Source of the DNA: Bifidobacteriaceae bacterium
GTDB taxonomy: Bacteria; Actinomycetota; Actinomycetes; Actinomycetales; WQXJ01
Reading direction: 5' to 3'
Length of the DNA stretch: 64,000 nucleotides
Assembly (NCBI GenBank): GCA_031281585.1
Contig: JAITFE010000158.1
Coordinates: 3,477 to 67,476 of the forward strand
In this document: positions 50,010 to 64,000 of the stretch, piece after piece
Numbering within the stretch: position 1 is the first letter of the stretch
Layout: each line of letters begins with the position of its first letter
Made by a program: the position numbers and the translations under genes
The notes under the pieces: model-generated
What the model saw: the letters and a program-made list of their open reading frames with translations, nothing else
What the model was told of the DNA's origin: nothing
Database searches by the model: none

Positions 50010-50025
50010 ATACCCCCAGGGGTAT
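50010..50025. promoter_or_regulatory. CsoR-family operator-like palindrome ATACCCC-CA-GGGGTAT
   Basis: Perfect 7-2-7 inverted repeat ending 11 nt before ATG 50037. GC-tract palindromes flanked by TA are the known operator type of CsoR/CstR repressors, and a CsoR-family gene follows in the same operon. Confidence 0.6.
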
Positions 50026-50036
50026 ATGGTTGTAGC

Positions 50037-51780: not shown

Positions 51781-52137
51781 ATGACCGAAACCCCCGCCGA
51801 TCAATCAGTCGCGGCCCAGGAGCCGGCCGCCGTCCGGCGTCAAGTGCTGAACCGGTTGAACCGCGCCCAGGGCCAGTTGGGCGCGGTGATCAGAGCGGTC
51901 GAGGCCGGCACGGATTGCCGGGCGGTCATCACGCAGCTGGCGGCGGTGTCCGCCGCGGTGGACCGTGCCGGCTTCGCCATAGTGGCCTCCGGCTTGAAAC
52001 GCTGTTTCAGCCGCGATGCGGGCGCGGGGACCTCCCCGGATCCCGCCGCCGCCCAGGCTGCTGGCCCGCCCGGCCTGGACGCTGACGCGGGCATGACCGT
52101 CCAGGATTACGAGAAACTCTTCATGATGCTCGCCTGA
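51781..52137 (+). CDS. CsoR/RcnR-family repressor, His-less (CstR-like)
   Basis: VLNRLNRAQGQLGAVIRAVE...DCRAVITQLAAV...ASGLKRC. Both Cys are present, but the His of the CsoR C-H-C triad aligns with Gly. Confidence 0.85.
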   Translation: MTETPADQSVAAQEPAAVRRQVLNRLNRAQGQLGAVIRAVEAGTDCRAVITQLAAVSAAVDRAGFAIVASGLKRCFSRDAGAGTSPDPAAAQAAGPPGLDADAGMTVQDYEKLFMMLA

Positions 52138-52257
52138 GAGGCCAAGCGGCGCCGCGCGTGGGAGCGGAGCGGGCGATGCGCGGGTCAGCAGCAGAACCCA
52201 AAGACACAAATCGAAAAAGGTACCGTCCCCATTTCTGGAGAAGCAGAGGAAACCCTT

Positions 52258-52434
52258 ATGTGCCGTCCTGTCACCTGCCGAGTGTGCGGCAAGACCACCT
52301 GGGCCGGCTGTGGCCAGCACGTCGACCAAGTCAAGGCGGGCGTGCCCGCGTCCCAGTGGTGCGACGGCCGCCACGCGCAGGTGGAAAACGGCGCCGCCAG
52401 GCGAAAAGGCCTGTGGGCGCGCCTCTTCGGCTGA
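52258..52434 (+). CDS. Small Cys-rich protein (58 aa), below the ORF-track size cut-off
   Basis: ATG 52258 with AGAGGA 8 nt upstream. MCRPVTCRVCGKTTWAGCGQHVDQVKAGVPASQWCDGRH... has 6 Cys plus His, suggesting Zn binding. It resembles a conserved actinobacterial small protein (from memory). Confidence 0.6.
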   Translation: MCRPVTCRVCGKTTWAGCGQHVDQVKAGVPASQWCDGRHAQVENGAARRKGLWARLFG

Positions 52435-52477
52435 CCAACTGCGGCTGCGCGCCGGGCTGCCGTCGGCACCCGGCTGG

Positions 52478-52744
52478 TCAGGGGTAGCCGACTTCCCAAG
52501 TTTCCAGCACGGTGCCCTCGCCCACCGAGCGGCTGCCCTCTTTGACGAAGAAGCGTGCGCCCGCGACCAATTCCGAGTAGTCGGCCTGGGTCCAGCATTC
52601 GGCCACCCCGCGCATCGGCTTGCCGAGTTCGCGGTCCCGGCCGTCGTCATGGGCGTTGAACCAAACGCCCAGGTAGTCGCCCAATCCGGCTCCCGCCTCC
52701 TGCGGGTGGGCGGTCAAGAAAGCGCAATCTGGCGCGTTCTTCAC
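52478..52744 (-). CDS. Hypothetical small protein (88 aa)
   Basis: Balanced composition. 4-nt overlap with the upstream gene 52741..53025. The C-terminus FFVKEGSRSVGEGTVLE is beta-barrel-like. No family assigned. Confidence 0.5.
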   Translation of the reverse strand: MKNAPDCAFLTAHPQEAGAGLGDYLGVWFNAHDDGRDRELGKPMRGVAECWTQADYSELVAGARFFVKEGSRSVGEGTVLETWEVGYP

Positions 52745-53025
52745 AGGCTTGCGGCAGCGGCGCGAAGGCGTTCCGCCATGCGCGCGGTGCCGGCGGCGGG
52801 TAGGCCGTAATCGGCGAATTCTGCCGCATCAACCGTAGAGGCCTGCATCAGCACATGGGCAAATGCAGCGGCCGTGGCCTCGGGTCTGATCTTGGCCAGC
52901 ATGGCGGAGAGGCCTTGCACGGTCCAACGACCCAAGTCCACTACCACCGCGCCGTCACCTGGAGCCGCGACCACGAACGACCGAAACCAAGAGTCGGCCT
53001 GACCGGCAAGGGCGGGCGCTGGCAC
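52741..53025 (-). CDS. Hypothetical small protein (94 aa)
   Basis: ORF translationally coupled to 52478..52744. No recognisable motif. Confidence 0.4.
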   Translation of the reverse strand: MPAPALAGQADSWFRSFVVAAPGDGAVVVDLGRWTVQGLSAMLAKIRPEATAAAFAHVLMQASTVDAAEFADYGLPAAGTARMAERLRAAAASL

Positions 53026-53128
53026 GTACCGCGCGACGGTTCCCTGCGCGCGATTGACTGTTCAGGCAGCCCATTCCCCCTGATCAGACCGCAAAACCGC
53101 GCGCACAAGCCGCGAAGTCAGGATCCGG

Positions 53129-53150
53129 CTTGACCTTGACGTTACGTCAC
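53129..53150 (+). promoter_or_regulatory. MerR-type operator/promoter motif, copy 1 (CTTGACCTTGACGTTACGTCAC)
   Basis: TTGACC (-35-like, 53130-53135), a 19-bp spacer containing the palindrome TGACG-TTA-CGTCA, then TGTAAT (53155-53160). It lies 78 nt upstream of the small ORF at 53228. Confidence 0.6.
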
Positions 53151-53227
53151 AGCCTGTAATGAATGATGCAAGAGCGAAGGGCCCCGAGGTTCTTCGCGCA
53201 GACATCGCCCGAAAGGAAATATAAGGC

Positions 53228-53314
53228 ATGAACACCGCCGACTCTGATATCCAGCTTGACCTGACCGTGACTGAATTTGACGCCACCGAAGCCCCTTCAT
53301 TCGTCTGGTGGTGA
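53228..53314 (+). CDS. Candidate RiPP precursor peptide (28 aa): MNTADSDIQLDLTVTEFDATEAPSFVWW
   Basis: Not in the ORF track (<60 aa). AAAGGA lies 10 nt upstream of ATG 53228. Sits downstream of MerR-type promoter copy 1 and 48 nt upstream of the RRE-M50 gene. Acidic leader-like N-terminus (6 D/E, no K/R) and hydrophobic C-terminus. Confidence 0.5.
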   Translation: MNTADSDIQLDLTVTEFDATEAPSFVWW

Positions 53315-53362
53315 TCACCGCCAACCGATTCGGCGCTTCGATCCGAGGAGACGAGTGAGACG

Positions 53363-54685
53363 GTGAGTGCCTTGCTAACACGCTTCCGGCCCGCGCCGGG
53401 AACAACGTCGCGGCTCCAGGCCGATAGCGGTCTTCTCCTCGTCTCCCGTTCGGATTGTCGAGTATTCCAACTCGGCCGCGACGCGGGTCGCCTCTTCGAC
53501 GCTCTAGCCGCCGAAGGCGACCCGCGCGACGCCGATGACCTTTGCGACATGTTGGGCTGTGGTCGCAATGCCGAATCCGTGGAGCGGGCGCTCGCGTCAA
53601 TGGAGGCATTGGGACTGGTGTCCCGCGTGGGACGGGCGGGTCCGGTCTCGGGTCCGCCACGCCGCTCCCGGATCGCGTTTCGTCCGCCGCTCGCGGTTGC
53701 CGTCAGACTGATCGACCCCTCGCGGCTACTGGCGTTTCTCGCCCCGCTGGCGGTGCTGCTGCGCGGTCGCCTTGGCCTGTGCCTTGGACTGGCAGGACTC
53801 ATGGCGCAAGTCGCGTTCCTATGCTGGGCCCCGCCCGCTTGTGTCAAGGATCCGTTTCACGCTGTGCTCGCAGCTTCCCTGGTACTTGGCGTGGCGGGAT
53901 TGCACGAGCTCGCTCACGGGTTAGTCATGACCCGCGCAGGCGTGAGTTCCCGAGGGATCGGATTCATGTTCATGGGTCCGGTGCCTCTTCTGTACTGCGA
54001 CGTTTCCGGCAGCGTTGCGTTGTGCCGTCGGGCCCAAGTCGATGTCGCCCTTGCCGGGGTGGTAATGCAGGCCCAGGTGGGCGCGCTCCTTCTGCCGATG
54101 GCGGCCGGCGCCAACTCACTTGGCGTGATTAGGGCGTTCATCGCGGTCAACCTGATGATGATGGCTGGAAACGCGGTTCCATTTCTTCCCTTGGACGGAT
54201 ACATCGCGCTTAGGGCAGGGCTCGGCAGACCCAACTTGCGGACGGCTGCCATCGCGGAGTTTGGTCGGTGGGTGGTTCGCCTCGTGGGACGGCAAGGCCC
54301 GGGCGGGGAACGCGGAAGCGAACCAAGATGGCTTGCCGCGTTCGGCGGAGCGGCGGCGCTTGCGCCGGTTTGCCTGGTGGGCGTCGCGGTTTGGCGATCA
54401 AGCGAACTTGCCGGATGCGCCGGCGGGATCGGGGCGCTGGCGGTGGCCGTGGTGGTGTGGCTGGTAAGTCGAATCGCGCCGAATGTGGCTCGCTCGGCGC
54501 GATCACAGGGTTCCTGTACCCTGTTGCCAGGCAATCGATGCGTTCCGCGCCAGGGACGCACGTCCTACGGGGAAGGACTGGAGAGACCGGGTGGACCTGA
54601 CGATTGGCGAACTCGCGCGGATGGTGGGCCTGACGCCCAGGACGGTCCGTTACTACGAGAGCATTGGGCTGCTTCCAGAGCCTGA
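53363..54685 (+). CDS. PqqD/RRE-like domain fused to an M50-family (site-2 protease-like) membrane zinc metallopeptidase
   Basis: GTG 53363 with GAGGAG upstream. The N-terminal about 90 aa has a PqqD-like pattern (LLLVSRSDCRVFQLGRDAGRLFDALAAEG...AESVERALASMEALGLVS). Multi-TM core with HELAH (53903-53917) and NAVPFLPLDGY. The last 95 nt overlap the MerR gene, so the C-terminal end is uncertain. Confidence 0.7.
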   Translation: MSALLTRFRPAPGTTSRLQADSGLLLVSRSDCRVFQLGRDAGRLFDALAAEGDPRDADDLCDMLGCGRNAESVERALASMEALGLVSRVGRAGPVSGPPRRSRIAFRPPLAVAVRLIDPSRLLAFLAPLAVLLRGRLGLCLGLAGLMAQVAFLCWAPPACVKDPFHAVLAASLVLGVAGLHELAHGLVMTRAGVSSRGIGFMFMGPVPLLYCDVSGSVALCRRAQVDVALAGVVMQAQVGALLLPMAAGANSLGVIRAFIAVNLMMMAGNAVPFLPLDGYIALRAGLGRPNLRTAAIAEFGRWVVRLVGRQGPGGERGSEPRWLAAFGGAAALAPVCLVGVAVWRSSELAGCAGGIGALAVAVVVWLVSRIAPNVARSARSQGSCTLLPGNRCVPRQGRTSYGEGLERPGGPDDWRTRADGGPDAQDGPLLREHWAASRA

Positions 54686-55370
54686 TCGCACTTGGGGAAA
54701 CTATCGCCTGTACTGCGAAGAAGACGTCATCCGTCTTACTCGCGTTAAACGGCTCACCGCAATGGGGCTGAGCCTAGAACAGGTCGCCGACGTTATCGGC
54801 AGACCGGTTGACGAATCCTCAGAAGAGGTTCTGACGGAGCTGAATAGGCGGCTCCAATCTGAGATTCGAGTCGCGCGCGAGCGGCAGAAAGCCATTGACC
54901 GCATAAGGGGAACCGGTGCCACAATCGACGCGGAGCCGGAATTCGCCGCCAGGCTAGTAAAGCAAGAACAGGCGGAGTTGACTGAATTTGAGCGCGACTA
55001 CAGCCGGGTCCTGGTTGACGCCGTCACCGCGCTCGGCTCGGACTCTGACCGCGCCCGCCTCGAATGGCTCTTTGCCCACGGTGACGCGTTATCGACGCTG
55101 CCGGAGTTCCAGGCCCTCAATTCGCTCGACAAGGATCTGGCCGCTCTGCCGGATGATGCGACCGAGGAGGAGATCGAAAAGCTGGCCGATGCCTACATCA
55201 CGGCGCATGAGGCGGCTGATCAAGCGTTCCCGCCCGGTATCGCCCGAACCTGGTCGCCCCGCTTGGCTGATGTGTTAGACGCCCTTTTGGACAACCGGCT
55301 CAGCGATGCCCAGGTCGAGGTCCAACGCCGCGTCCGAACCGCTCGCCGCGACGGCGGCGCGAGACACTGA
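54591..55370 (+). CDS. MerR-family transcriptional regulator (long C-terminal effector domain)
   Basis: GTG 54591 gives VDLTIGELARMVGLTPRTVRYYESIGLLPEP...YRLYCEEDVIRLTRVKRLTAMGLSLEQV (MerR HTH + coiled coil). About 150 aa of additional C-terminal sequence. Confidence 0.85.
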   Translation: MDLTIGELARMVGLTPRTVRYYESIGLLPEPDRTWGNYRLYCEEDVIRLTRVKRLTAMGLSLEQVADVIGRPVDESSEEVLTELNRRLQSEIRVARERQKAIDRIRGTGATIDAEPEFAARLVKQEQAELTEFERDYSRVLVDAVTALGSDSDRARLEWLFAHGDALSTLPEFQALNSLDKDLAALPDDATEEEIEKLADAYITAHEAADQAFPPGIARTWSPRLADVLDALLDNRLSDAQVEVQRRVRTARRDGGARH

Positions 55371-55401
55371 CCCCTAGTGATGTTTGGCTCGCGGACGGCC
55401 G

Positions 55402-55423
55402 CTTGACGTTGACGCGGGGTCAG
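55402..55423 (+). promoter_or_regulatory. MerR-type operator/promoter motif, copy 2 (CTTGACGTTGACGCGGGGTCAG)
   Basis: TTGACG (55403-55408), a 19-bp spacer with TGACG-CGG-GGTCA, then TTGGGT (55428-55433). GTG 55441 follows about 8 nt later, consistent with a leaderless mRNA. Confidence 0.55.
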
Positions 55424-55440
55424 AGTGTTGGGTCGGGTAT

Positions 55441-55857
55441 GTGACAAGCATCCAGAATCCGCCAGTGCCCGGCCATGCCGGCTCCCAGACCCCGATCCAG
55501 TTGGAATACACCACGCGAGAGGCGGCGCAATTGGTTGGGTTGACCGCCCGCGCGCTGCGCTACTACCACCAGGTGGGGCTCCTGCCCGAGGGCCGGCGCG
55601 GACCCGGTGGCCAGCGCATCTACACCCGCGAGCAGATCCTGATGTTGCTCCGGATAGTGCGTCTGAGCGAAATGGGCCTCTCCCTAGAGGAGGTGGCGGA
55701 TGTCTTGGGTGGCCCGCCGGGGACTCACCGCGCAGAGGTCATTCTTGTGAGCTTGGACCGCGCGCTGGCTGACCGGGTCGGCGTGATCCAGGCCCAGCGC
55801 CGTGTCATCCGTGAGCTGCTCACGACGGGATCGCCCGTGATCAAACGCGGTGGGTGA
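55441..55857 (+). CDS. MerR-family transcriptional regulator (short)
   Basis: YTTREAAQLVGLTARALRYYHQVGLLPEGRR...RIYTREQILMLLRIVRLSEMGLSLEEV. GTG 55441 is preferred over the track start 55384, which lies upstream of and across the promoter motif. Confidence 0.8.
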   Translation: MTSIQNPPVPGHAGSQTPIQLEYTTREAAQLVGLTARALRYYHQVGLLPEGRRGPGGQRIYTREQILMLLRIVRLSEMGLSLEEVADVLGGPPGTHRAEVILVSLDRALADRVGVIQAQRRVIRELLTTGSPVIKRGG

Positions 55858-55907
55858 CGCCGCAGGGCACCGACCAGCTCCACGTGTCCGTTTCGTGGCG
55901 TCCCCGG

Positions 55908-57797
55908 CTAGGGAAACGGGTGCGGCACCAAGTTGGGTACGAACGCCGATGCCGGGCGGCCGGTGTGCGCCGCCCACGCGTCCCGCAGTCGGGGCATCCG
56001 TAGGGCGCGCTGAACCGACCAGCCGAAGTCGATCGGGATTAGCCCAGGGACGATCGCCTTGGCCGCGTGGGCCCCGAGCCTTGTCAGTAGTGGAATCGTC
56101 TGGTCTACCACGATCGGCTCGAAGCCCGCCTGGCTGGTGATCTCGATGAGCCAGCCAAGACCCAGGCCGGGCTCGTCGGCTTCGGCCGCGCTTCGGCATG
56201 GTCCAACCTTGTCCACCGGAACCAACGGCTCCGCTGGCCCATCCAGCAAGAATGCGGCCAAGTGGCGGGCCGCGGGATTCTTGAACATGTCAGCGTGATC
56301 CTCCAACCGCCTGACCGCCTGGAAATCGCGAATCATGGCGTCGGTCTGCGTCAGCCTTCCCTGCGTCATGCGATGCGTCGAGGCCGAGTCGGAGGTGAAA
56401 CCCAGTCCGAAGTCGGAGCAGATCTCCGACAAGGCGCCCAGGATGGCGTCCTGCGGATCAGGCCGACTGGCGGCGCCGAAACAAAGGGCGCCGCTCTTTT
56501 CATTCTCGGCGACAGCCATCACAGTTGGAACCGGCAAACCAACCGTGCAATCGAAGAGGCGGACCTGCTGCCCATATAGCCGCATGCGTGCCAGCATCAT
56601 CTGCGCCAAATTGGATTCGACCCCGTTGGGGTCGATCTCGCGGAGGGGAATCCCGCCATACCAAGCGATAAGGAACGAGTCTCGTTCAATCACTTCGAGG
56701 AGGCCATAGAACGCGGCCTCTGCCAGAGTTGAACCAACGGCACAGCCACTCGAAGTTTCGAAGGCGAATAGCTCTGCGGCCGGCTCGGCCCCGTAATACA
56801 CCAGCGACTCTGGAACTGCGACAACCTCTCTCGCGCGCAGCGAATAGCCGGGCACCCAATTCATCTCCGCCGGAACCGGGAACGGCCAGTCCTCGGGCGC
56901 CAAGCCGAATTCGCTCGGGCCTACGGCGCGCACCGGTAGATCGGCAGCGGATCCCCGCCAACGCAGCGCACGCTGGGCCGGCCTGTACCCGGCGATCCGC
57001 TCCAGTCCTTCCAGCACGCCAATGGCCTCGGAATCGGCGAATGTGCCGGCGTGGCCGCCCCAATGCAGCGACCAATTCTCCCTGTGGGCGCCCAACCGCT
57101 TCTCTCCAGCGACCTTGGCGGGAATCTCTGACTCAAGGTCCCAAAACGATCGGGATCCAGCCAAAGCCGTTGCTGGATGAAGGAAATCGCTTGGTTGCAG
57201 CGCGTCGAAATGGGAGCGGGCCGGGGCGCGGGGCACAAGCAGCGCGTCGCCCGGCCGGAGTTGTCCCTCATAATCTGCGGGCGGAGCCTCAGGTGCGAAC
57301 TCATGGTGCCGGGACGGGTGACACGGCTCACAGGCCAATAGGCGTACACCCGTGATGCCCAACCGCAACCGGTCAATTCCAACCACCGCTGGGGCCGCCG
57401 CGGGATCGGAAGTGGCAAGGGTTTCGAGTAGGCGGGCCATCAACTCGGCCTCGAACGGGTTGCTCCCCGGCAGATCCACGCCGACCTCCGCAGTGCTCAC
57501 TGCGTGGCGGAGCGACGGATCGTAGCCCACGGCCTCCATCACACAGGGAACGCAGCTGGTTGCCCTGGGATCCGAGACAAAGACGTGGGTCGGCGTGCGG
57601 TAGATGACCGGACCATCCCACTGGATCGCCAGATCGGGGTCCGAGTGCCCCGAGGGGGCCGGACCCAAAGCGTCCACCACCAGGCATGGGCACGGGTCTG
57701 GGGGGAGCTTCGCATCGGGCACTAACGGGTCCTGTCGCTGGTCGGGGTGGGTCATGAGGGAACTGGCGCGGGCGTTTGGGACCTTATCACACACCAT
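55908..57797 (-). CDS. YcaO-domain cyclodehydratase (SagD family) with Cys-rich N-terminal extension
   Basis: FETSSGCAVGSTLAEAAFYGLLEVIERDSFLIAWY (YcaO ATP/Mg core-like). Pro-rich C-terminus ...VPNLVPHPFP, typical of azoline-forming YcaOs. The N-terminal about 230 aa has CPC, CVPC and CEPC. The alternative start ATG 57755 (MTHPDQ) is equally possible. Confidence 0.88.
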   Translation of the reverse strand: MVCDKVPNARASSLMTHPDQRQDPLVPDAKLPPDPCPCLVVDALGPAPSGHSDPDLAIQWDGPVIYRTPTHVFVSDPRATSCVPCVMEAVGYDPSLRHAVSTAEVGVDLPGSNPFEAELMARLLETLATSDPAAAPAVVGIDRLRLGITGVRLLACEPCHPSRHHEFAPEAPPADYEGQLRPGDALLVPRAPARSHFDALQPSDFLHPATALAGSRSFWDLESEIPAKVAGEKRLGAHRENWSLHWGGHAGTFADSEAIGVLEGLERIAGYRPAQRALRWRGSAADLPVRAVGPSEFGLAPEDWPFPVPAEMNWVPGYSLRAREVVAVPESLVYYGAEPAAELFAFETSSGCAVGSTLAEAAFYGLLEVIERDSFLIAWYGGIPLREIDPNGVESNLAQMMLARMRLYGQQVRLFDCTVGLPVPTVMAVAENEKSGALCFGAASRPDPQDAILGALSEICSDFGLGFTSDSASTHRMTQGRLTQTDAMIRDFQAVRRLEDHADMFKNPAARHLAAFLLDGPAEPLVPVDKVGPCRSAAEADEPGLGLGWLIEITSQAGFEPIVVDQTIPLLTRLGAHAAKAIVPGLIPIDFGWSVQRALRMPRLRDAWAAHTGRPASAFVPNLVPHPFP

Positions 57798-57821
57798 CTG
57801 GAAACTGGTGGGCGCGAGCCG

Positions 57822-57843
57822 CTTGACCTTGACGCGACGTCAC
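57822..57843 (+). promoter_or_regulatory. MerR-type operator/promoter motif, copy 3 (CTTGACCTTGACGCGACGTCAC)
   Basis: TTGACC (57823-57828), a 19-bp spacer with TGACG-CGA-CGTCA, then TTGACT (57848-57853). ATG 57861 lies 8 nt downstream (leaderless-type). The motif sits in the divergent YcaO / E1-like intergenic region. Confidence 0.6.
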
Positions 57844-57860
57844 GGTTTTGACTTCAAGCC

Positions 57861-59954
57861 ATGACCCGCTCACAGCAAGGAATCGGCCCATCGACAGCCC
57901 TTTCGCTTGAAGCGCCGCAGCCCTCCGGAGCCGCCCCAGGCGCGAAGCTAAGGCTCCGAGCCAACACCATGTTCAGCTCGTCCGCTGCCGGTATCCGCTT
58001 CTCCAACACCGAGACGGTCCTTGAGATCGCCGGTGCGTCCGCCTACCGTGCCTTCAAGGCCATCGCGCCGATACTGGACGGCTCGTATTCGCGGCGCGAA
58101 CTCGCCCAGACGCTGGATCAGCGGACTTGGCAGAAGGTGGAGGCGTTTGTCGAGCCGTTGCTGGCACGGGGCTTCCTTCGCGAAATCGACCCGTGTCCGG
58201 ACGTCAGCCTCTCGCCCGATGACGAGGTGAGGTTTGCCGAGCAGCTCGCCTTCATCGCCCACTTCAAAGATGATCCGAAGCGTCGCTTTGTTCGCTTCCG
58301 CGACGCATCCATCGCCGTGGTCGGCGGCTGCCCGCTTGCTGCCTGGCTTGCCCGCGTGCTTGTCCAAAACGGCGCCCGGCGCCTGACCTATTACAGCCCC
58401 GGCGCCGCGCGCCCGGACGATCTGCCGGACTCAGTTCAGGTCCGATCGCTGGATCGCCTGGACCATGACGCGCCGGAGTGCCAGGTCCTGGTGCTGCCGC
58501 CCACACCTTGGGCGGCGCGGCGGCTGGCGCAGGCCGGAGACGGTTTTGGCGCGCCGGTGACTTTGCCGATCACAGCCTTGGGCGACAACCTCGTGATCGG
58601 CCCGATGTGGACCGCCGGTGACGATTCGGCCGCCACCTGGGCAGACATGATGGCGGCGCTGAGCGAGCACGATTCGGATGGGAGTGTCGCCCACTTCTGG
58701 GTCACCGCACTTGCGGGGGTAGAGACCGGCGCGACCGCGACAGGGCTACCTGCGGTCCAGCGGCTTGGAGCCTCCCTTGCCGCCATCGAGGTGTACCGGA
58801 ACCTGACCGAGATTTCTGAGCCTGAGACGGCCGCTTCGATCCTGGTCCTCGATTGCCTTCACGGTGAGGCCAAGCGTCACCGCGTGATCCCGCACCGGTA
58901 CATCCACCCGGCCGCCACCGGATCTATGAACAGGTGCCCGGCGTCGAGCCTGCCCGCACCTTCCGACGAAGTCTCCGGCAGGGTCGGACCAAGCTGGTCC
59001 AAGGCCTGCGCACAAGCGGTCGATCCTCTGACTCTTCCAATCATGCGATTCGACGATGGCGAGATCGAGCAATTGCCGCTCAAGGTGTCCGTGGCGGAGG
59101 TGGTGATGGGTGGCGGGAGACCACCGGTCACCATCGGCTCGGCCGATCTCTGGGATGTGGCCGGCGCTCGTGCCCGGGCTACCCGCCAGGCGCTGGCGCT
59201 GCGGCTCGAAACGTGGGCGCCCCCCGCCGCCTCGTGGGCCGAGGCGCGGACGGTCGATGGTCTCCTTCACGGTCGCACAACGCGCGACCAGGCCCACACA
59301 TCCAATCCCGTCCTGGCACGGGACCTCCTCACGGGCGAGAAAATCGCCGTGCCTTCCGGCGCCGTCGCCACCATGTCGAGCGCTAACACGCTGGGCGTCT
59401 TCGGCCGCTCAGCGCTCGGCTGCGGCATCGGACTCGACTACGACGAGGCGTTGGAGGGCGCCGTTTCCTCGGCCGCCGCGCGTCTAGGACTGATCGCGGC
59501 GGCCCGCGCGGGAGCGGCACCCCGCGCGACGGCATCGGACACCTCGCCTAAGAGCGTCTTCTTGCGCGACGCGGCCCAAAGGCTCGGCGTGGTTGTCGAA
59601 TCATTCGATGCCGGGTGCCACCTCGGCCGCCACGTCGTCATCTCGCGGTGCCGGCGCTCCGGGGTGACCGCCTGGGAGGCAGCCGCAGGCAGCGACTTGG
59701 CCGAAGCCTTGTGCGCCTCGCTCGTTGGGCTGATCGGCGCTGTGCAACGGGCCGCCAACGGAAAGGCCCCCGAGACCTGGTCGATGACGGCCGAGCCAGA
59801 GTTCGACCCGAACGGTTTGGCGACCGGAACGGCCCCTCTGGAAAAGGCCAATAGCCCCCGCGTGATTGTCTGCGACGTCACCAACCCGGAACTCGCTGCC
59901 CTCGGATTCGTGGCCGTCAAGGCCCTGACGGCGGACGGGGGCGAACCGCGATGA
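57861..59954 (+). CDS. E1/ThiF-like cyclodehydratase partner (ocin-ThiF-like) with N-terminal RRE-like wHTH and YcaO-like degenerate C-terminal half
   Basis: N-terminus IRFSNTETVLEIAGASAYRAFKAIAPILDGSYSRRELAQTL...VEPLLARGFLREI (RRE pattern). Rossmann-like IAVVGGCPLAAWLARVLVQNGARRLTYY. The C-terminal half has GCGIGLDYDEALEGAVSSAAARL but no E-x-x-ER motif. Assignment is by resemblance only. Confidence 0.65.
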   Translation: MTRSQQGIGPSTALSLEAPQPSGAAPGAKLRLRANTMFSSSAAGIRFSNTETVLEIAGASAYRAFKAIAPILDGSYSRRELAQTLDQRTWQKVEAFVEPLLARGFLREIDPCPDVSLSPDDEVRFAEQLAFIAHFKDDPKRRFVRFRDASIAVVGGCPLAAWLARVLVQNGARRLTYYSPGAARPDDLPDSVQVRSLDRLDHDAPECQVLVLPPTPWAARRLAQAGDGFGAPVTLPITALGDNLVIGPMWTAGDDSAATWADMMAALSEHDSDGSVAHFWVTALAGVETGATATGLPAVQRLGASLAAIEVYRNLTEISEPETAASILVLDCLHGEAKRHRVIPHRYIHPAATGSMNRCPASSLPAPSDEVSGRVGPSWSKACAQAVDPLTLPIMRFDDGEIEQLPLKVSVAEVVMGGGRPPVTIGSADLWDVAGARARATRQALALRLETWAPPAASWAEARTVDGLLHGRTTRDQAHTSNPVLARDLLTGEKIAVPSGAVATMSSANTLGVFGRSALGCGIGLDYDEALEGAVSSAAARLGLIAAARAGAAPRATASDTSPKSVFLRDAAQRLGVVVESFDAGCHLGRHVVISRCRRSGVTAWEAAAGSDLAEALCASLVGLIGAVQRAANGKAPETWSMTAEPEFDPNGLATGTAPLEKANSPRVIVCDVTNPELAALGFVAVKALTADGGEPR

Positions 59955-61585
59955 CCGCCACAACAATCCAAGTGGACAGGCCGACACCTGCCCCGGAGTC
60001 GTCTTGTGCCACGCTCACGCCGCTGGGCGAGGAATGGGCGGAACTGGCCCCAGGCCAGGCGGCGCGGCGGTACGCCGAGATGATCTTTCGCCGGGCCGAA
60101 CAGGGAATGCCCCTCCGCAAGTGGCAGATCGACTGGGCGGACGCCCCCTGGCCGCAGAAGTTCTACCCCGGAACCCAGCTTGTCGCCTTGCCTCGGGCCA
60201 CGGCACCAGGTGGCCTGGCCTCGGGTGGACCGGTCGCCATGGACCGCGCGCTTGGAGACCTCCTCTTCTACTCCTACGGAGTGATGGGGAGGCGCAGCCG
60301 AGTCAATTGCAACGAGTCCACATCGATGCTGGTGAACGCCGAGGAGGCCAGGTGGGCGCGAGGTGCGTCATCGGGTGGGGGCAGATACTGCGCGGGCGTG
60401 TACCTCGTGGTGGGACGCGACTTCGGTCTGGAGAGCGGGATCTACCACTATTCACCGATCCACCACGCTCTCGAGCGCCTCTCGTCGGGGGACTGGACAG
60501 GTCCCGTGGCGCATGCTCAGCGGTATCCCGCCGCGCAACAGTGCTACGTCATCCTCACCGTCAAGTACTGGCAGTCCGCCTTCAAGTACAACGACTTCGC
60601 CTGTCAGGCGACCAGCATGGACCTGGGAACTCTCACGGGGACATGGCGCTACGTGCTCGGGGAGGCCGCAGATCTCGTCCAGCCCGATCTGTGGGTGGAT
60701 GAGGCGTCGCTGGCGGGGATCCTCGACCTTGACTCCGGCGCGGAGGCCGTTTGTGCGGTCATGGGGATCGGGCCGGCCACCACCGCTGCGGTCAGTCCCC
60801 GACCGGGCGGGCGCCTGCCCCACGCCGACGAGCGTTCCCAGACGGTCCACTCGTTTGTCACCCAGCGGGCGCTCCAACGTGACGCGCTGGCAGAACGAGG
60901 AGTGCCGTCCGGCCTCGACCCGGTGTGGCCTGTACCCGAGTCTTTGACCGCCTCGCTGACGCCCGACCCAGCAGTCAAGGGGCGAATCAGCGACGTGTGG
61001 CGCCGCGAGACGTCTTTTGGGCGCTTTGACGGCGCTCCGGTCCGCGTCGAAGTGCTAATCGAATGCCTGGCTGAGGCAGACGCCGCCCAATCGGTGGTGG
61101 ACCGAACCTTCTCCGGCGCCACGGGGAGGGAAGTGGGTCTATATGTCATAGCCGAGGCCGTGGATGGCCTACCGAGAGGCTGCTACCGCTTCGATGCCGG
61201 CACGCGGGCGTTGCGCCGGGCGCACACCCGTGACGCCATGGCGATCTTGCTCCGGCGCTACTTCCTCAACAACTACGACCTCGAGCGAGCGGCGGCCCTC
61301 GTGGTCATGACTGCCAATCCGATCGGCCTTGGAGAGGCTTACGGCGTTCGCGGCTACCGCGCCATCAACACGGCCGCAGGCGCGGTTTGTCAGCATCTGC
61401 ACCTCGCATGTGCGCGGCGAGGAGTGGGCGCCGGAACGGCCCTCGGCTTCGACGCGGCCAGCGAGTTCGACGCGCTGGGGCTGTCAGGCCGGGACGCCAT
61501 TCCGGTGTTGACCATGTTCATTGGGCATGACCGGCTGGCCTCCGGGGCGCTTGACCTGTCCCTCGAATGCGGCGGGGAACGGTGA
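59951..61585 (+). CDS. SagB-type (nitroreductase-fold, FMN) azoline dehydrogenase
   Basis: ASSGGGRYCAGVYLVVG...GIYHYSPIHHALERL and a second lobe LYVIAEAVDGLPRGCYRFD...NTAAGAVCQHLHLACARRGVG. ATGA overlap with the preceding gene. Confidence 0.85.
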   Translation: MTATTIQVDRPTPAPESSCATLTPLGEEWAELAPGQAARRYAEMIFRRAEQGMPLRKWQIDWADAPWPQKFYPGTQLVALPRATAPGGLASGGPVAMDRALGDLLFYSYGVMGRRSRVNCNESTSMLVNAEEARWARGASSGGGRYCAGVYLVVGRDFGLESGIYHYSPIHHALERLSSGDWTGPVAHAQRYPAAQQCYVILTVKYWQSAFKYNDFACQATSMDLGTLTGTWRYVLGEAADLVQPDLWVDEASLAGILDLDSGAEAVCAVMGIGPATTAAVSPRPGGRLPHADERSQTVHSFVTQRALQRDALAERGVPSGLDPVWPVPESLTASLTPDPAVKGRISDVWRRETSFGRFDGAPVRVEVLIECLAEADAAQSVVDRTFSGATGREVGLYVIAEAVDGLPRGCYRFDAGTRALRRAHTRDAMAILLRRYFLNNYDLERAAALVVMTANPIGLGEAYGVRGYRAINTAAGAVCQHLHLACARRGVGAGTALGFDAASEFDALGLSGRDAIPVLTMFIGHDRLASGALDLSLECGGER

Positions 61586-61589
61586 CACC

Positions 61590-64000
61590 ATGCGCGTCAT
61601 AGCCGACGAGAGGGTTCAGTCCCGGACAGCGGGTTTGCCGGCGAGTGTGCTGCGCGGTCTGCGTTCAGCGGATTTCGAGGCGTGGGTAGCGGACGTTGAC
61701 GCGGCGGAGGAAGCTCTCAGCTCAGCTCTTGAGCGCGCCACGGACCAGCTCTTCGGGATCATCGGCAGACTCGAGGCCGGTTCCGACCGCAAGGCGTTGG
61801 TGGAAGCGCGCCGGCACTTGCACAACCGGCGCTTCGCCCAGGCCAAGGTCCGCGTCGATGCCGTGTCACCTGGGATTGCCGAAGAGGTTGCCGCCTTGTC
61901 CGCACCGGTCTTCGCGGCGGCCGACGAATTTGAGGCCGTGCGGGCGCGCGGCGAGCTGGTGGTGGGGGAATGGCTGCGCCGGGAGCGCTTGAACCTTGGC
62001 GAACTGCTGGACGAGGAAGACTTCGCGCGAGGACTGGGCGTGGCGGCACCGAGCGCCACCACCGGCCTCCTCTCATACCGGGCCGCTGCACGCCGCGGGG
62101 GAACGCTGTCAAAGAATCAGCGCAAGGCTGAGCGGACGCTTCTTCAATACGCGTGGCGGGCGGCCGCCAAGACCTCACCGTTCTCAAGCCTCACGCGCGT
62201 TGGCATAGCGCGGTGCTCCGGCGCTGCAAACGTGCCCGCATCTGGCGGGAGAGACTTTCCAGACCGGATTGATGTGTCTCGCGCCTCGGTTTACCCGATA
62301 GCGCTGGCCTTGGACTCGCTTTGGCACAACGAGAAAGCCGTCCTGGGAATGCGGGTGATGCCGGGCCAGGTGATAGGGGAGGAACCGGACGGCGCCGTGA
62401 TTGTCCACCGCTCGGAGTACGACTTCTCCGACGCCACCGGAGAATCCGACCAGGCGGCCGTTCTGGAGTCTCTGGTCCGCATAGTTCCCGGAGATCTTTG
62501 CGACACGGTAGCGGCGGCCCTGGAGCAGGGCGCCGCCACCGTGGGCGCAGTCGTGGATCGCATGCATGGCCAGGGTGTGCCTCAGGCGACAGCGTTGCGT
62601 GCGGTTCAAGAGCTGATCCGGCTCGGCTTCTTGGTTCTGCCGGACCTCCGCTTCCATCCGCACATTGGCGCCGAGGCGGTCCTCGAGAGCCTGCCCAGGG
62701 AGATTGAGAAGCTCGGGGACCAAGGCTTCCGCGACGCGGTCACTGGGTATGTGGAGGCCGCCGAGTCTTTGTCGAAGATCAGCGGACTCGCCGAGCGATC
62801 CCATGCCGTGGATGCGATCCGCGGCGCGGTCAAGCGGGTTTACGAGGTCTCCGGCTGCTCAGACGCGCCGGTTCCGCAGTCGGTTGTTTACGAGGACTCG
62901 GGCCTGGGTCAGGCGCCCGAACTGCCAAGCCCGCCTCTGGAGAATCCGGACTTGGGGAAGCTGTTCGCGTTGTCGGAGGTGCTGGACGAGAGTCAAGTGC
63001 CGAGGGCCATGCTGAGGGGATTCTTCTTAGGGATGTTTGGGGCGGACGGTCGATGCGAGAACGTTCCCGCGTTCCTCGACGCATTCAAGACGCAGTTGTA
63101 CAGCTCGCACATGGCTCGTGACGCCGCCAACTTGGACCGGGACCGCATTGAAGCCGATCCGTGGCTGAGATGGGGTGAGGCTTGGCGCTGGGAGAAGGCC
63201 CAGGGCGTACTTAGGGAGTTGGTTGCGGACGCCGTTCCCGTGGGCGGCGTCATCGACATTCGCGACGCTTTGGCCACGAGTGGCCCGGCTCTGCGGCTGT
63301 TGCCAGATGTTGTCTTCCCCTTCCGGCACCTCAACATATTCGCTCAGGTCCTTGGTCGGAACGGACTGGTGGTCAACAACGTGTTCGGCGGTCCTGGGTT
63401 TGGGCTCTCCCGCTTCGCCCATCTATTTGGGGACGATGCCGTCAGTTGCGTTCGGTCGGTAGAGGACATGGCGCTCGCGGCCGGAGTGACGTTGCACGAG
63501 TTGCTGGGTGGAGCCGCCGTAACGAATCTCAACCTCCATGGTCCGCTTCTCAGGTCGGAACTGCGCATGCCCGGAGATCCGTCAGGCTCGCGGGCCGAGC
63601 GTCAGACCAGCGTCTTCGATCTAGATCTCATCTACATCTCGGATCAGGGCCGGCTGGCCTTGGTGCACCGGCGCACCGGCGAAGAGGTCCTGCCCACTTA
63701 CATCGGTTACCTGGTGCCGTTCGCGACTCCGACATCTCATCAGCTGATGGGGCTCCTGGCGCCCCCGGTGATGTTCGGCTCCGGCGTCTGGGGTGGACCG
63801 GAAGGAAGCGACGAGGCCGGAGCCGTTGAGGTGAAAAGGCGCCCGCGGGTCGCGATAGGCGATCACCTCGTCCTCGAGCGTGCCACTTGGGAGGTTCCAG
63901 CCGAGCTAATGCCGTCGGCCGATCCGACGTCCCCAAACGGCCTGGTCGAGTGGTGCCGATGGTGGCGTGCGCTGGGCCTGCCAGAGACGTCCTTCATCAG
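61590..64000 (+). CDS. Lanthipeptide/thiopeptide-type dehydratase, LanB N-terminal (glutamylation) domain; 3' end outside window
   Basis: Not in the ORF track (no stop in window). Hand translation from ATG 61590 (4 nt after the SagB stop) stays open for 803 codons. Hallmarks are RKAERTLLQYAWRAAAKTSPFSSLTRVG and a C-proximal RRPRVAIGDHLVLERATWEV. Confidence 0.85.
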   Translation, partial: MRVIADERVQSRTAGLPASVLRGLRSADFEAWVADVDAAEEALSSALERATDQLFGIIGRLEAGSDRKALVEARRHLHNRRFAQAKVRVDAVSPGIAEEVAALSAPVFAAADEFEAVRARGELVVGEWLRRERLNLGELLDEEDFARGLGVAAPSATTGLLSYRAAARRGGTLSKNQRKAERTLLQYAWRAAAKTSPFSSLTRVGIARCSGAANVPASGGRDFPDRIDVSRASVYPIALALDSLWHNEKAVLGMRVMPGQVIGEEPDGAVIVHRSEYDFSDATGESDQAAVLESLVRIVPGDLCDTVAAALEQGAATVGAVVDRMHGQGVPQATALRAVQELIRLGFLVLPDLRFHPHIGAEAVLESLPREIEKLGDQGFRDAVTGYVEAAESLSKISGLAERSHAVDAIRGAVKRVYEVSGCSDAPVPQSVVYEDSGLGQAPELPSPPLENPDLGKLFALSEVLDESQVPRAMLRGFFLGMFGADGRCENVPAFLDAFKTQLYSSHMARDAANLDRDRIEADPWLRWGEAWRWEKAQGVLRELVADAVPVGGVIDIRDALATSGPALRLLPDVVFPFRHLNIFAQVLGRNGLVVNNVFGGPGFGLSRFAHLFGDDAVSCVRSVEDMALAAGVTLHELLGGAAVTNLNLHGPLLRSELRMPGDPSGSRAERQTSVFDLDLIYISDQGRLALVHRRTGEEVLPTYIGYLVPFATPTSHQLMGLLAPPVMFGSGVWGGPEGSDEAGAVEVKRRPRVAIGDHLVLERATWEVPAELMPSADPTSPNGLVEWCRWWRALGLPETSFI

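Follow-up and report, generated by a model that had tools for sequence, protein, structure and literature searches.

A MerR-linked short-peptide cassette and its putative operator at a predicted linear azole peptide cluster in Bifidobacteriaceae

Introduction

Several described peptide systems resemble parts of the locus considered here. In goadsporin biosynthesis, cyclodehydration by a YcaO enzyme is combined with an FMN dehydrogenase and with a split LanB dehydratase acting on serine, where GodF carries out the glutamylation and GodG the elimination; there is no pyridine synthase, and both leader removal and export fall to a peptidase/ABC transporter (PMC5303826, PMC10676384). Thiopeptide clusters, exemplified by those of thiomuracin (tbt) and thiocillin, combine a partner protein with a fused YcaO architecture (PMC4603692) and have a separate [4+2] pyridine synthase of the TclM/TbtD type. 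The 'coryneazolisin' clusters (Cox et al. 2015, PMC4603692) are a bioinformatic family, reported from Corynebacterium only and never characterised, with cores that are runs of Cys, Ser and Thr and, in many cases, with transposable elements on their flanks.

Two further systems concern short peptides. In daptide biosynthesis, an RRE–site-2 protease removes the leader, the conserved motif of which, ELExMEAP, ends at P(-1) (PMC10036551). In the streptococcal SHP/Rgg systems, e.g., PdrA/tryglysin, the gene of a short hydrophobic peptide adjoins that of its regulator; this regulator activates the gene of its own peptide together with a RaS-RiPP operon, and the peptide is imported by Opp (PMC8092268).

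The DNA analysed here, called the window, is a stretch of 64,000 nucleotides from a Bifidobacteriaceae bacterium. From comparison of sequences, the joint explanation that we find best, and rather probable, is that its last part carries two linked systems: a biosynthetic cluster and a separable regulatory cassette.

Results

The biosynthetic cluster continues beyond the window

Across 11,038 nt, a public contig (L001) agrees with the window in every position (0 mismatches), and it reaches 7.5 kb beyond base 64000. Every gene that an earlier note on this DNA had listed between 53129 and 64000 was found where it had been placed (Table 1). Beyond the edge follow the genes of a Lant_dehydr_C protein (LanB_C), a second RRE/M50 protease (M50b), a 59-aa precursor, an ABC/ABC-2 exporter, a second YcaO protein (YcaO2) and a flavodoxin-like protein, and the biosynthetic cluster spans about 18 kb, from 53130 to window-equivalent 71430. 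A further metagenome contig (L002) carries the entire block in synteny, with protein identities of 35-69%, and about 75 of 80 related genome loci have their core genes in the same order. From this follows that the arrangement of the genes is not due to chance. The gene order of the cluster is common to the genomes of at least 75 actinobacterial species; the member of the family found in Nesterenkonia is flanked by transposable elements.

Table 1. Positions of the features of the locus, in window coordinates unless stated otherwise
Feature	Position	Strand	Remarks
Putative MerR-type promoter-operator before the short-peptide gene	53130-53160	+	Exact match to TTGACNNTGACGNNNCGTCA
Short-peptide gene (28 aa)	53228-53314	+	MNTADSDIQLDLTVTEFDATEAPSFVWW; upstream ribosome-binding site AAGGAAA
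M50a, RRE–M50/site-2 metalloprotease fusion	53363-54685	+	Motifs HELAH and NAVPFLPLDG (NxxPxxxxDG)
MerR type A (259 aa)	54591-55370	+	PF00376/PF13411
Degenerate operator just upstream of the MerR type B gene	55403-55422	+	1 mismatch
MerR type B, truncated (138 aa)	55441-55857	+	HTH and coiled coil kept, without C-terminal domain
YcaO1	55908-57797	-	PF02624, 222 bits; TIGR03604, 222.5 against a cutoff of 219.25
Second putative promoter-operator, facing into the partner-SagB-LanB operon	57823-57853	+	Exact match
Ocin-ThiF-like partner ('F protein')	57861-59954	+	Sub-threshold HMM matches and synteny
SagB-type FMN dehydrogenase	59951-61585	+	TIGR03605, 113.1 bits against a cutoff of 78.4; PF00881
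LanB_N (glutamylation enzyme)	61590-64000, cut by the window end	+	PF04738, 54 bits
59-aa precursor	13610-13789 on L001 (window-equivalent 66572-66751), outside the window		Conventional precursor ORF, MSTADIAGLAAELDALNAETLEVKDYVDYSDAAFASSSSCSSTTSTCSSCSSTSSCAAL

Matches to profiles, motifs and RRE structures agree with the YcaO, SagB, LanB_N, RRE–M50 and two MerR assignments of the earlier note. The divergent YcaO1 gene encodes a predicted azoline-forming cyclodehydratase of the SagD family, which is extended by about 250 aa at its N-terminus and has PHPFP at its C-terminus; a PxPxP C-terminus is kept throughout the family. YcaO2, with 183 bits on PF02624, has the C-terminal variant PHPFS, which is conserved in its clade. 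The partner protein, for which 57969 is an alternative start, has only sub-threshold matches, to TIGR03693 (ocin_ThiF_like; 2.4e-10, 39 bits, cutoff 562), to TIGR03882 (cyclo_dehyd_2; 0.0025, 18 bits, cutoff 37) and to PF02624 (YcaO; 1e-6). From these matches, together with a position beside YcaO1 that is conserved in about 75 loci, it is a putative E1-like partner, which probably delivers the leader of the precursor to the YcaO enzymes. The operon that had been described is also there, in that the SagB gene overlaps the end of the partner gene by 4 nt and LanB_N begins 4 nt after SagB.

Complete LanB_N, as encoded on L001, has 880 aa and ends at window-equivalent 64232, and its closest solved relative is TbtB (6ec7, 6e-21). 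Directly after it comes LanB_C, with 137 bits on PF14028 (Lant_dehydr_C), so that the locus has a split LanB, with a glutamylation enzyme and a separate elimination enzyme. The profile of LanB_C aligns with the elimination domains of NisB and MibB across the YEPExxRYGG motif, but its alignment with TbtD, a pyridine synthase, leaves this motif out. No pyridine synthase was found in the window and L001, nor in the cluster of L002, which is bounded by unrelated genes. The absence of such an enzyme had been noted before and stands, while the LanB elimination enzyme and the transporter, thought to be missing as well, are encoded just past base 64000.

The 59-aa precursor and the predicted product

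The core of the 59-aa precursor is SSSSCSSTTSTCSSCSSTSSC, where 21 of 24 residues are Cys, Ser or Thr; its Cys/Ser/Thr-rich part reads SSSSCSSTTSTCSSCSSTSSCAAL. The precursor passes two models of the thiazolylpeptide type, NF033400 (40.3 against a cutoff of 30) and TIGR03892 (36.8 against 25). From the enzymes and the precursor beyond the edge, and from the absence of a pyridine synthase, follows the predicted product class: a linear azole peptide with dehydroalanines, made by goadsporin-type chemistry with thiopeptide-type enzymes. The class had seemed unassignable because the window edge cuts the cluster, and this verdict falls with the precursor, the elimination enzyme and the exporter that the extension supplies.

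The gene content and the family assignments are observed, and the chemistry of the pathway we infer from the characterised enzymes of goadsporin and thiomuracin (PMC5303826, PMC10676384). By analogy with these, the Ocin-ThiF-like partner would bind the leader of the 59-aa precursor, YcaO1 and YcaO2 would turn Cys, Ser and Thr of the core into azolines, and SagB would oxidize these to azoles. With Glu-tRNA(Glu), the TbtB-like LanB_N would glutamylate the leftover Ser and Thr, the single Lant_dehydr_C enzyme would eliminate the glutamate to give Dha and Dhb, M50b would remove the leader, and the DrrAB-like ABC-2 pump would export the mature product.

A true macrocyclic thiopeptide, with the [4+2] pyridine formed by the single Lant_dehydr_C enzyme or by the product of an unlinked gene, is very improbable. 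Such a product would accord with the thiazolylpeptide matches of the precursor, with TbtB as the nearest relative of LanB_N, with a score of 87 bits for the NCBIfam model thiopep_ocin, and with TbtD as the best solved match of LanB_C by E-value (1e-13). However, LanB_C reaches only 66.8 bits on NF045556, the TbtD/PbtD pyridine synthase model with a cutoff of 325, and keeps the elimination motif of NisB and MibB. All related loci (more than 80) have exactly one PF14028 gene, yet the dehydratase needs an elimination partner, and Cox et al. took 'coryneazolisin' and goadsporin clusters, which have the same gene content, to be non-macrocyclic (PMC4603692).

The predicted linear azole peptide cluster can be set beside the described ones as follows. 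Its predicted chemical logic is that of goadsporin; it has two YcaO proteins and an Ocin-ThiF-like partner where goadsporin has the single cyclodehydratase GodD, it has no counterpart of the acetyltransferase GodH (PMC5303826), there being no GodH-type N-acetyltransferase among the genes of L001 and L002, and its precursor, of the thiopeptide-type family, has a core whose composition bears no relation to that of the 19-aa GodA core. With the thiomuracin and thiocillin clusters it shares the architecture of a partner protein, here a putative one, plus a fused YcaO, but not the separate pyridine synthase. By description only, it can be likened to the 'coryneazolisin' clusters, in which there are also two YcaO (D) proteins, split lanthipeptide-type dehydratases and no cycloaddition enzyme. 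The earlier note had reckoned both with a conventional precursor just outside the window and with collinearity to a characterised cluster: the former is there, whereas all collinear matches are to uncharacterised clusters, and no characterised member of the family was found among them. The spongiicolazolicins, linear azole peptides with dehydroalanines related to goadsporin, may be such a member; their reported 28 and 29 residues would fit the family's Streptomyces precursors if these were cut after D28 or A29, a lead from length. A Pearlin/PEARL system, in which a LanB-like ligase works on the C-terminus of a scaffold peptide with no elimination partner and an M50 protease takes part, was rejected, as the elimination enzyme directly follows LanB_N and six loci with the cassette described below have no LanB.

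The short peptide belongs to a separate cassette

The 28-aa peptide has a daptide-like leader, …LDLTVTEFDATEAP (…EFDATEAP), followed by the five residues SFVWW, in agreement with the five-residue core proposed before. Ten distinct short peptides, one in the window and the others in nine other loci, each adjoin an RRE–M50 protease homologous to M50a. They have in common the leader (L/F)x(V/I)xE(F/Y)D(A/V)x(E/D/Q/K)(A/I)P, while their tails are variable and Trp-rich: SFVWW, TLLWW, NIWIWLL, IWWL, DWWMG, GFYLGL, CWLLLFLL, SFWMGL, CWWWVCCR and SFWNW.

M50a scores 180 bits (6.8e-53) on NCBIfam daptide_HExxH (NF041824), below the equivalog cutoff of 300, and in a model of its residues 1-105 (pLDDT 79.6) the top structure matches are all RRE (TbiB1, TruD/LynD, PqqD and PbtF). 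Its homologues in equivalent cassettes are 36-43% identical to it, and the subfamily also takes in true daptide proteases (in locus L175); true daptide precursors, with leaders …LE(A/T)L(D/E)AP, adjoin more distant relatives. M50a is predicted, by analogy, to act as leader peptidase on the 28-aa peptide, and from its homology to the proteases of daptide processing it would cut after …EAP and free SFVWW. Intramembrane proteases do not usually have substrates with a tail as short as five residues. The window shares with the daptide pair MpaA/MpaP an RRE-fused intramembrane site-2 protease and a leader ending at P(-1). The daptide core, however, is long and aliphatic, of about 20-28 residues with an invariant C-terminal Thr, against four to eight residues in the short peptides, none of which ends in Thr; neither the window nor L001 or L002 has the tailoring genes MpaB, MpaC, MpaD and MpaM; and the short peptide is accompanied by MerR regulators and a dedicated operator, which the daptide descriptions examined do not mention.

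MerR type A consists of an N-terminal HTH and an all-alpha C-terminal domain of about 150 aa, which matches no Pfam family and no known ligand-binding family; database homologues match the HTH only. Orthologues of type A occur in L002, L089, L090, L092, L094, L174 and L175. The type B proteins of L002, L089 and L094 are 265-292 aa long; that of L092, like that of the window, is truncated (144 aa). In all eight cassettes with contigs that reach far enough, MerR type A and/or B is adjacent.

Peptide, M50 protease and MerR occur together without YcaO or LanB in six loci (L089, L090, L092, L094, L174 and L175). Judged from the sequences, the 28-aa peptide is not the precursor of the azole cluster, for which the earlier note had it as a candidate. 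That it is after all the substrate of YcaO, SagB and LanB, giving a new RiPP of very small size in which Ser24 becomes an oxazole or Dha, would suit its location in the cluster, its Thr20 and Ser24, and an LD…E pattern that its leader has in common with the 59-aa precursor. But a conventional precursor is available to these enzymes, the leader is of the daptide and not of the thiopeptide type, with no match to thiopeptide precursor models, and the residue after …AP is not a conserved Ser or Thr but S, T, N, I, D, G, C, S, C and S in the ten peptides. With the six loci added, we give this alternative hardly any credence. The peptide, M50 protease and MerR cassette, separate from the biosynthetic cluster, is apparently undescribed.

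A putative operator shared by the peptide gene and the biosynthetic genes

In the promoter at 53130, the -35 hexamer TTGACC and a -10-like TGTAAT are 19 bp apart, and the dyad TTGACG-N3-CGTCA lies in this spacer; that at 57823 has the same -35 hexamer, a 19-bp spacer containing the dyad, and a -10-like TTGACT. A dyad inside an over-long -35/-10 spacer of 19-20 bp is the geometry of MerR-activated promoters; here the spacer is followed by a TTnACT-like hexamer, and the geometry is alike in all copies; a scan for canonical promoters with 16-18 bp spacers found none at the operator sites. The operator is therefore put forward as a predicted MerR-activated promoter.

The window has two exact copies, one with one mismatch and one with two, where 0.12 copies with at most two mismatches are expected. 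The 20-nt operator had 15 exact matches in the first 2.54 Mb scanned (some in duplicate contigs), against about 0.005 expected, and loci added later gave further ones. All exact matches fall in cassette-bearing loci, and members of the cluster family without the cassette lack the operator. It precedes the orthologous peptide genes in L002, L097, L092, L090, L174 and L175, and in L002 it also occurs at the equivalent position before the partner-protein gene; L089 has an exact copy between its two MerR genes, at the position of the degenerate copy in the window. In all, the operator precedes peptide genes, M50 genes, one MerR gene and three types of RiPP operon, namely azole-peptide (window, L002), radical-SAM/SPASM (L092/L176) and daptide (L175). 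As it lies in front of the biosynthetic operon and of the peptide gene alike, one regulator set probably switches on both.

If the cassette were the decaying remnant of a daptide cluster, with operators that are alike as a local promoter type and have no regulatory link, one would understand the truncation of MerR type B in the window and L092, and the true daptide proteases in the M50a subfamily. Decay is, however, at odds with ten intact peptide ORFs that keep ribosome-binding sites, leaders and stops next to proteases of only 33-43% identity, with the exact 19-bp architecture retained in the operator copies, and with L002, where the cassette is retained together with the two operators although the proteins are only 35-61% identical. 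A remnant is accordingly extremely improbable.

Discussion

The cassette is best read as an autoinducing-peptide-like switch for RiPP clusters, where the genomic pattern is observed and the signalling role is what we infer from it. The freed Trp-rich peptide would be a signal sensed by the C-terminal domain of MerR, and this sensing would give a positive-feedback switch similar to those of quorum sensing. A parallel is SHP/Rgg, in that the operator lies before the peptide gene as well as before RiPP operons, and in that genes of an Opp-type peptide importer adjoin the cassette in L089 and L094, although there is none in the window. The autoregulation pattern, in which peptide gene and target operon share one operator, is found here at the level of sequence only. 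SHP/Rgg differs in using RRNPP regulators, whereas no RRNPP (TPR) receptor was found here, the adjacent regulators being of the MerR family; the hosts here are Actinomycetota, and processing is predicted to depend on an RRE-fused M50 protease and a RiPP-type leader, unlike in SHP/Rgg. To our knowledge, no MerR-family protein is a receptor for an unmodified short peptide. This counts against the proposed signalling, as do the truncated MerR type B and the missing Opp importer in the window, a MerR C-terminal domain that resembles no known ligand-binding family, and the shortness of the tail as a protease substrate.

The MerR-family protein TipAL binds Dha-containing thiopeptides. The short peptide could thus itself be the end product, a membrane-active or antimicrobial minimal daptide, with the MerR proteins as ordinary, TipAL-like regulators responding to stress or to the product of the cluster, which is predicted to be a Dha/azole peptide. 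Peptide and protease do derive from the daptide system, the products of which are membrane-active (PMC10036551). Yet the tails are very short and lack the invariant Thr, and no MpaB/C/D/M genes lie alongside except in L175, which has separate true daptide precursors. Moreover, the two MerR genes are tied to the short peptide and not to one type of biosynthetic cluster, a profile search of the window proteins detected no TipAS domain, and the peptide gene carries its own copy of the operator, a hallmark of autoinduction. We consider an end product unlikely.

The earlier note had seen here the window's best candidate for a new system. The azole cluster is of an ordinary type, and the novelty of the locus lies instead in the peptide/M50/MerR cassette, which had been treated as accessory. 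Tentatively, and as a possibility that we rate somewhat below even, the Trp-rich peptides would constitute an actinobacterial pheromone family, matured from RiPP-style precursors of leader and core by RRE-guided intramembrane M50 proteases and sensed by a dedicated MerR pair, within a portable autoinduction cassette. If this is true, sensing would occur via a previously undescribed MerR C-terminal domain, and one and the same cassette would have been plugged in before at least three unrelated types of RiPP cluster: azole/Dha, radical-SAM and daptide.

Gene Content of the Locus

The genes named in the earlier note for the right end of the window (a 28-aa ORF, an RRE-M50 protease, two MerR regulators, a YcaO enzyme, its partner protein, a SagB dehydrogenase and a LanB N-terminal dehydratase, LanB_N) were all found there, in a region of high GC content (about 65-68%). 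The protease, here called M50a, carries the motifs HELAH and NAVPFLPLDG; it has no Pfam match, and on the NCBIfam model of the daptide intramembrane metalloprotease it scores 180 bits (6.8e-53) against an equivalog cutoff of 300. The two MerR genes come next. YcaO1 scores above the cutoff for the SagD family and has PHPFP at its C-terminus; the 697-aa partner protein gives only weak matches to ocin_ThiF_like, cyclo_dehyd_2 and YcaO. The SagB gene overlaps the partner gene by 4 nt and is followed, after a gap of 4 nt, by the LanB_N gene, which extends past the window end. Rfam gave no match on 52500-64000.

Exact-sequence lookup of the SagB protein retrieved a public contig of 18.6 kb (L001), which is identical to the window across all 11,038 shared bases and reaches 7.5 kb further. 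On this contig LanB_N is complete at 880 aa and is followed, in order, by a Lant_dehydr_C protein of 372 aa (LanB_C; PF14028, 137 bits), a second M50 protease of 373 aa (M50b; HELAH and NLVPMRYSDG), a 59-aa ORF with a perfect 14-bp hairpin after it, a DrrAB-like pair of ABC ATPase and ABC-2 permease, a second YcaO enzyme of 563 aa (YcaO2), a small membrane protein and a flavodoxin_5 protein. The 59-aa peptide scores above the cutoff in both NCBI models of thiazolylpeptide-type precursors. The earlier note saw no elimination domain, transporter or precursor rich in Cys; this holds for the window and not for the locus, since the extension carries LanB_C, an exporter and the precursor. The inverted repeat between the precursor gene and the ABC genes might act as an attenuator and so set the ratio of precursor to enzymes. 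An ORF of 30 aa that overlaps the stop codon of the M50b gene is probably not a gene.

At the left side of the cluster lies a fusion of a pyridine-nucleotide disulphide oxidoreductase with a rhodanese domain, which resembles CoA-disulphide reductase and belongs to ordinary metabolism; two minus-strand ORFs near it have no Pfam match. Further left, one ORF of 4535 aa combines two cellulase domains of family GH5 with Ig-like domains (Big_1/Big_6) and resembles a giant cellulase that is secreted or displayed on the cell surface, as would suit a fibre-degrading actinobacterium, if a guess at the habitat is permitted.

Positions of the features discussed, in the window or in the public contigs (L numbers) compared with it
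Feature	Contig	Position (strand)	Remark
Operator-like match	window	13089-13108 (+)	2 mismatches
Putative giant cellulase	window	34131-47738 (+)
ORF	window	48313-50253 (-)
Oxidoreductase-rhodanese fusion	window	49767-51743 (+)
ORF	window	51805-52650 (-)
Operator, peptide gene	window	53130
28-aa ORF	window	53228-53314	MNTADSDIQLDLTVTEFDATEAPSFVWW
M50a	window	53363-54685
M50a overlap with MerR type A gene	window	54591-54685
Degenerate operator, MerR gene	window	55403
YcaO1	window	55908-57797 (-)
Operator, YcaO1/partner intergenic region	window	57823
Partner, SagB, LanB_N	window	(+)
30-aa ORF	L001	13493-13585
59-aa precursor	L001		MSTADIAGLAAELDALNAETLEVKDYVDYSDAAFASSSSCSSTTSTCSSCSSTSSCAAL
14-bp inverted repeat	L001	13810-13847	window-equivalent 66772-66809
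M50a orthologue	L002	1270-2463
Operator without ORF	L089	11585 (-)
Radical-SAM RiPP-like cluster	L092	5609-10244
Radical-SAM RiPP-like cluster	L176	7816-12451
Daptide-type cluster	L175	3069-9828
M50-ABC fusion	L008/L072	11141-13369

Family and Product Class of the Biosynthetic Cluster

Close relatives of LanB_N number just six proteins at E<=1e-10 in a word-indexed search, and 80 loci emerged when species-representative genomes were scanned with a profile. In about 75 of these 80, a tblastn table shows the order partner, YcaO, SagB, LanB_N, LanB_C, M50, ABC, ABC-2, YcaO2, in genera that include Brevibacterium, Nesterenkonia, Microbacterium, Arthrobacter, Rothia and Gleimia, as well as in many Streptomyces, Salinispora, Micromonospora, Actinokineospora and Catenulispora. 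Nearest are two MAGs labelled Bifidobacteriaceae bacterium, with LanB_N identities of 92% and 57%. The precursors of the family have a common leader (…LAxE(I)LxLExETFE(I/V)xDY…) and cores of Cys, Ser and Thr only, with C(A/S/T)A at the end; those of Streptomyces are annotated as 'thiazolylpeptide-type bacteriocin' on hundreds of contigs, and others are annotated in Micrococcales, Micromonospora and Salinispora.

To decide on a product class, consider the single Lant_dehydr_C gene, a second one being found in no family locus. The LanB_C profile aligns with the elimination domains of NisB and MibB across the motif YEPExxRYGG, where NisB has its elimination residues E823 and R826, and with the pyridine synthase TbtD solely outside that motif; LanB_C reaches 66.8 bits on the TbtD/PbtD model, for which the cutoff is 325. 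These results come from a profile search, single-sequence comparison with solved structures being uninformative. In L002, a syntenic metagenome contig where unrelated genes bound the cluster on both flanks, there is no further candidate for a pyridine synthase. On these grounds the predicted product is assigned to the linear azole peptides that contain dehydroamino acids, with goadsporin-like chemistry and thiopeptide-like parts. The predicted chemistry is that of goadsporin, for which GodD, GodE, GodF and GodG have been reconstituted (PMC5303826; summary in PMC10676384), and the parts shared with thiopeptides are the partner protein, a LanB_N whose best solved relative is TbtB (6ec7, 6e-21) and the precursor type. 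The 'coryneazolisin' clusters described by Cox et al., which are uncharacterised, have this gene logic too. Since the C-terminal PHPF(P/S) is retained family-wide in both YcaO enzymes, it is suggested that both are active, perhaps with one acting on Cys and the other on Ser/Thr.

Two other systems were rejected as matches: dehydrazoles (PMC10676384) have a LanM-type dehydratase and are relevant for general chemistry only, and dmxorosin (PMC11855644) is a split-LanB lanthipeptide with a cyclase. A link to spongiicolazolicins is possible. No characterised member of this exact family was found in the searchable literature, and no full text contained precursor core or leader strings such as STSCSSTSTCSS or ETFEISDY.

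Some members differ in their arrangement. In Nesterenkonia lacusekhoensis (L003-L005) two tandem precursor genes occur, and the IS3- and ISL3-type transposase genes on both flanks suggest recent horizontal transfer; flanking of the transposase type was likewise recorded by Cox et al. for coryneazolisin clusters. In Catenulispora rubra the M50-like protease and the ABC ATPase form one protein of 742 aa, which supports a coupling of leader removal to export, and the same fusion may occur in several Streptomyces loci. Micromonospora members (L048, L053-L062, L088) have three different precursor genes upstream of the YcaO gene, with pure Cys/Ser/Thr cores of up to 30 residues, and tblastn detected one YcaO only within these loci.

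The family is thus very widespread, apparently unstudied and of ordinary enzymology, and because the predicted product consists nearly entirely of azoles and dehydroamino acids, it would be reasonable to choose any producer for structural studies. The observations of the earlier note on the cluster stand and its interpretation does so in part: the cluster adds a member to a known kind, and the novelty lies in the cassette formed by the short peptide, M50a and the MerR pair.

A Short Peptide and Its Protease

The 28-aa ORF is a real gene, because a homologue (MNAESTKNLDCGLDLTIAEYDVTQAPTLLWW) is encoded at the corresponding place in L002, where it precedes an M50a orthologue that is intact at 397 aa. 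A first search gave two relatives of M50a at about 40% identity, and a metagenome scan together with a full HMMER search gave more. The small ORFs that adjoin them have the same leader and different tails.

Leader ends and tails of the small ORFs adjoining M50a relatives
Contig	Leader end	Tail
L089	…LDLSITEYDVTEAP	NIWIWLL
L090	…DLTITEYDAVDIP	IWWL
L092/L176	…DFSITEYDAVDAP	DWWMG
L093	…DFVITEYDAVDAP	GFYLGL
L094	…LDLTVTETDATKAP	CWLLLFLL
L097	…DFSITEYDTVDAP	SFWMGL
L174	…IDLTITDYDAVDAP	CWWWVCCR
L175	…DLTIDEYDAVDAP	SFWNW

More distant relatives of M50a adjoin classic daptide precursors (…ELEMQELEALEAP/GWW…T). In daptides, an RRE-site-2 protease fusion occurs with the leader motif ELExMEAP, where Pro is position -1 (PMC10036551), and the same pairing of an RRE-M50 protease with a leader ending in Pro is found in the window. 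By this homology the 28-mer consists of leader residues 1-23 and the tail SFVWW, which bears out the five-residue core guessed from the window. The N-terminal domain of M50a, modelled by itself (pLDDT 79.6) as the full-length model was too poor (pLDDT 46), has the β-β-β-α-α-α topology of an RRE, with TbiB1, TruD/LynD, ThcOx, PqqD and PbtF as best structural matches. The M50a ORF of 440 aa overlaps the MerR type A gene by about 95 nt, and since its homologues stop about 30 residues earlier in the alignment, its end may not be translated as protein.

The short peptide is predicted to be neither an azole/Dha substrate nor a daptide, because its first tail residue is not conserved as Ser/Thr, no tail ends in Thr, YcaO and LanB genes are absent from six other cassette loci (L089, L090, L092/L176, L094, L174, L175), and the one of these six with daptide tailoring genes, L175, has them beside separate true daptide precursors. 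The tail peptide could alternatively be an end product in its own right. The pearlin (PEARL) idea, prompted by the C-terminal WW and tRNA-dependent Trp addition, was dropped, as LanB_N is followed by an elimination enzyme and other loci have the cassette but no LanB.

The M50a subfamily is small (1.84 billion proteins gave 20 representatives at E<=1e-30), and at least one of its members, that of L175, is a true daptide protease; from this it appears that the cassette is a rare offshoot of the daptide system. A rival reading of the same kinship is that the cassette is a decaying daptide remnant. The daptide-type cluster of L175 itself has four unusually short precursors of 29-37 aa (e.g., MQKRELDLGVRELETLDAAWFFIIIIVIT), with leaders that end in …LDAA and not in …EAP.

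MerR Regulators and a Shared Operator

The peptide and M50 genes have MerR genes next to them in the window, L002, L089, L090, L092/L176, L094, L174 and L175. The proteins are of two paralogous types, A and B, with a common all-alpha C-terminal domain that has no Pfam match, so that a TipAS-like domain was rejected; the window and L092 have type B in truncated form. A search with MerR1 brought up Streptomyces MerR proteins, and their genomic contexts are unrelated.

The same 24-nt string, CTTGACCTTGACG(N3)CGTCA, occurs upstream of the peptide gene and in the divergent YcaO1/partner intergenic region. Its pattern, TTGACNNTGACGNNNCGTCA, has 15 exact matches in the first 2.54 Mb of sequence scanned, some of them on duplicate contigs (L001/window, L002/L010, L090/L091), where about 0.005 would be estimated by chance. 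Every exact match is in a cassette-bearing locus, further ones were found in loci added later, and the operator is missing from those members of the azole-peptide family that have no cassette. With up to two mismatches the window has 4 matches, to be compared with 0.12 expected; one, far from the cluster and without the right half of the dyad, is probably due to chance. The geometry is constant: a -35 hexamer TTGACY, a 19-bp spacer with the dyad TTGACG-N3-CGTCA(A), and then a TTnACT-like hexamer. A dyad in an over-long spacer is the classic layout of MerR-activated promoters, and canonical promoters with 16-18 bp spacers were not found in the region.

The operator precedes peptide genes (window, L002, L090, L092, L097, L174, L175), M50 genes (L090, L092, L174), a MerR gene (L089, with a degenerate copy in the window) and three kinds of RiPP operon. 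The first is the azole-peptide operon (window, L002). In the second (L092/L176) the operator is followed by a 33-aa ORF (MLFELFNHNDSGCVSAGFIVCVSAGGNIGSWSI) with a strong ribosome-binding site and then by genes for a membrane protein, an Rce1-like protein, a radical-SAM/SPASM enzyme and an ABC ATPase, apparently an uncharacterised radical-SAM RiPP-like cluster of the same regulon. The third (L175, with four operator copies in 12 kb) has an MFS gene, then the four daptide precursors, M50, an aminotransferase and Fe-ADH. In L089 another exact copy points into about 360 nt without recognisable ORF, convergent with the M50 gene, and might drive an antisense or non-coding transcript.

Discussion

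We propose that the cassette is a peptide-controlled switch. M50a would cut the 28-mer after Pro23 and release SFVWW at the membrane. The pentapeptide would accumulate and re-enter the cell, via Opp where present; in L089 and L094 the cassette has genes of an Opp-type peptide importer as immediate neighbours, and there are none in the 64-kb window. Inside, SFVWW would bind the C-terminal domain of MerR type A or B, and the MerR proteins would remodel the promoters with 19-bp spacers, so that transcription increases both for the peptide gene, in positive feedback, and for the biosynthetic operon. The MerR proteins could alternatively sense the Dha/azole product, as TipAL does. To our knowledge, no MerR regulator acts as a peptide receptor, and peptide-based cell-cell signalling in Actinomycetota is little documented. 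For a switch driven by SFVWW, the closest functional analogue is the streptococcal SHP/Rgg control of RaS-RiPP operons, which relies on another family of regulators and another processing enzyme (PMC8092268).

The literature gave nothing specific on a MerR/peptide/M50 system or on this cluster family, and as far as could be found the cassette of peptide, RRE-M50 protease and MerR regulators, together with its operator, is undescribed. It is therefore the cassette, more than the biosynthetic cluster, that is the interesting result. If it works as proposed, addition of a five-residue peptide would be a simple handle by which silent RiPP clusters could be woken, and the recognition of a RiPP leader by an RRE would have been reused in the processing of a signal.
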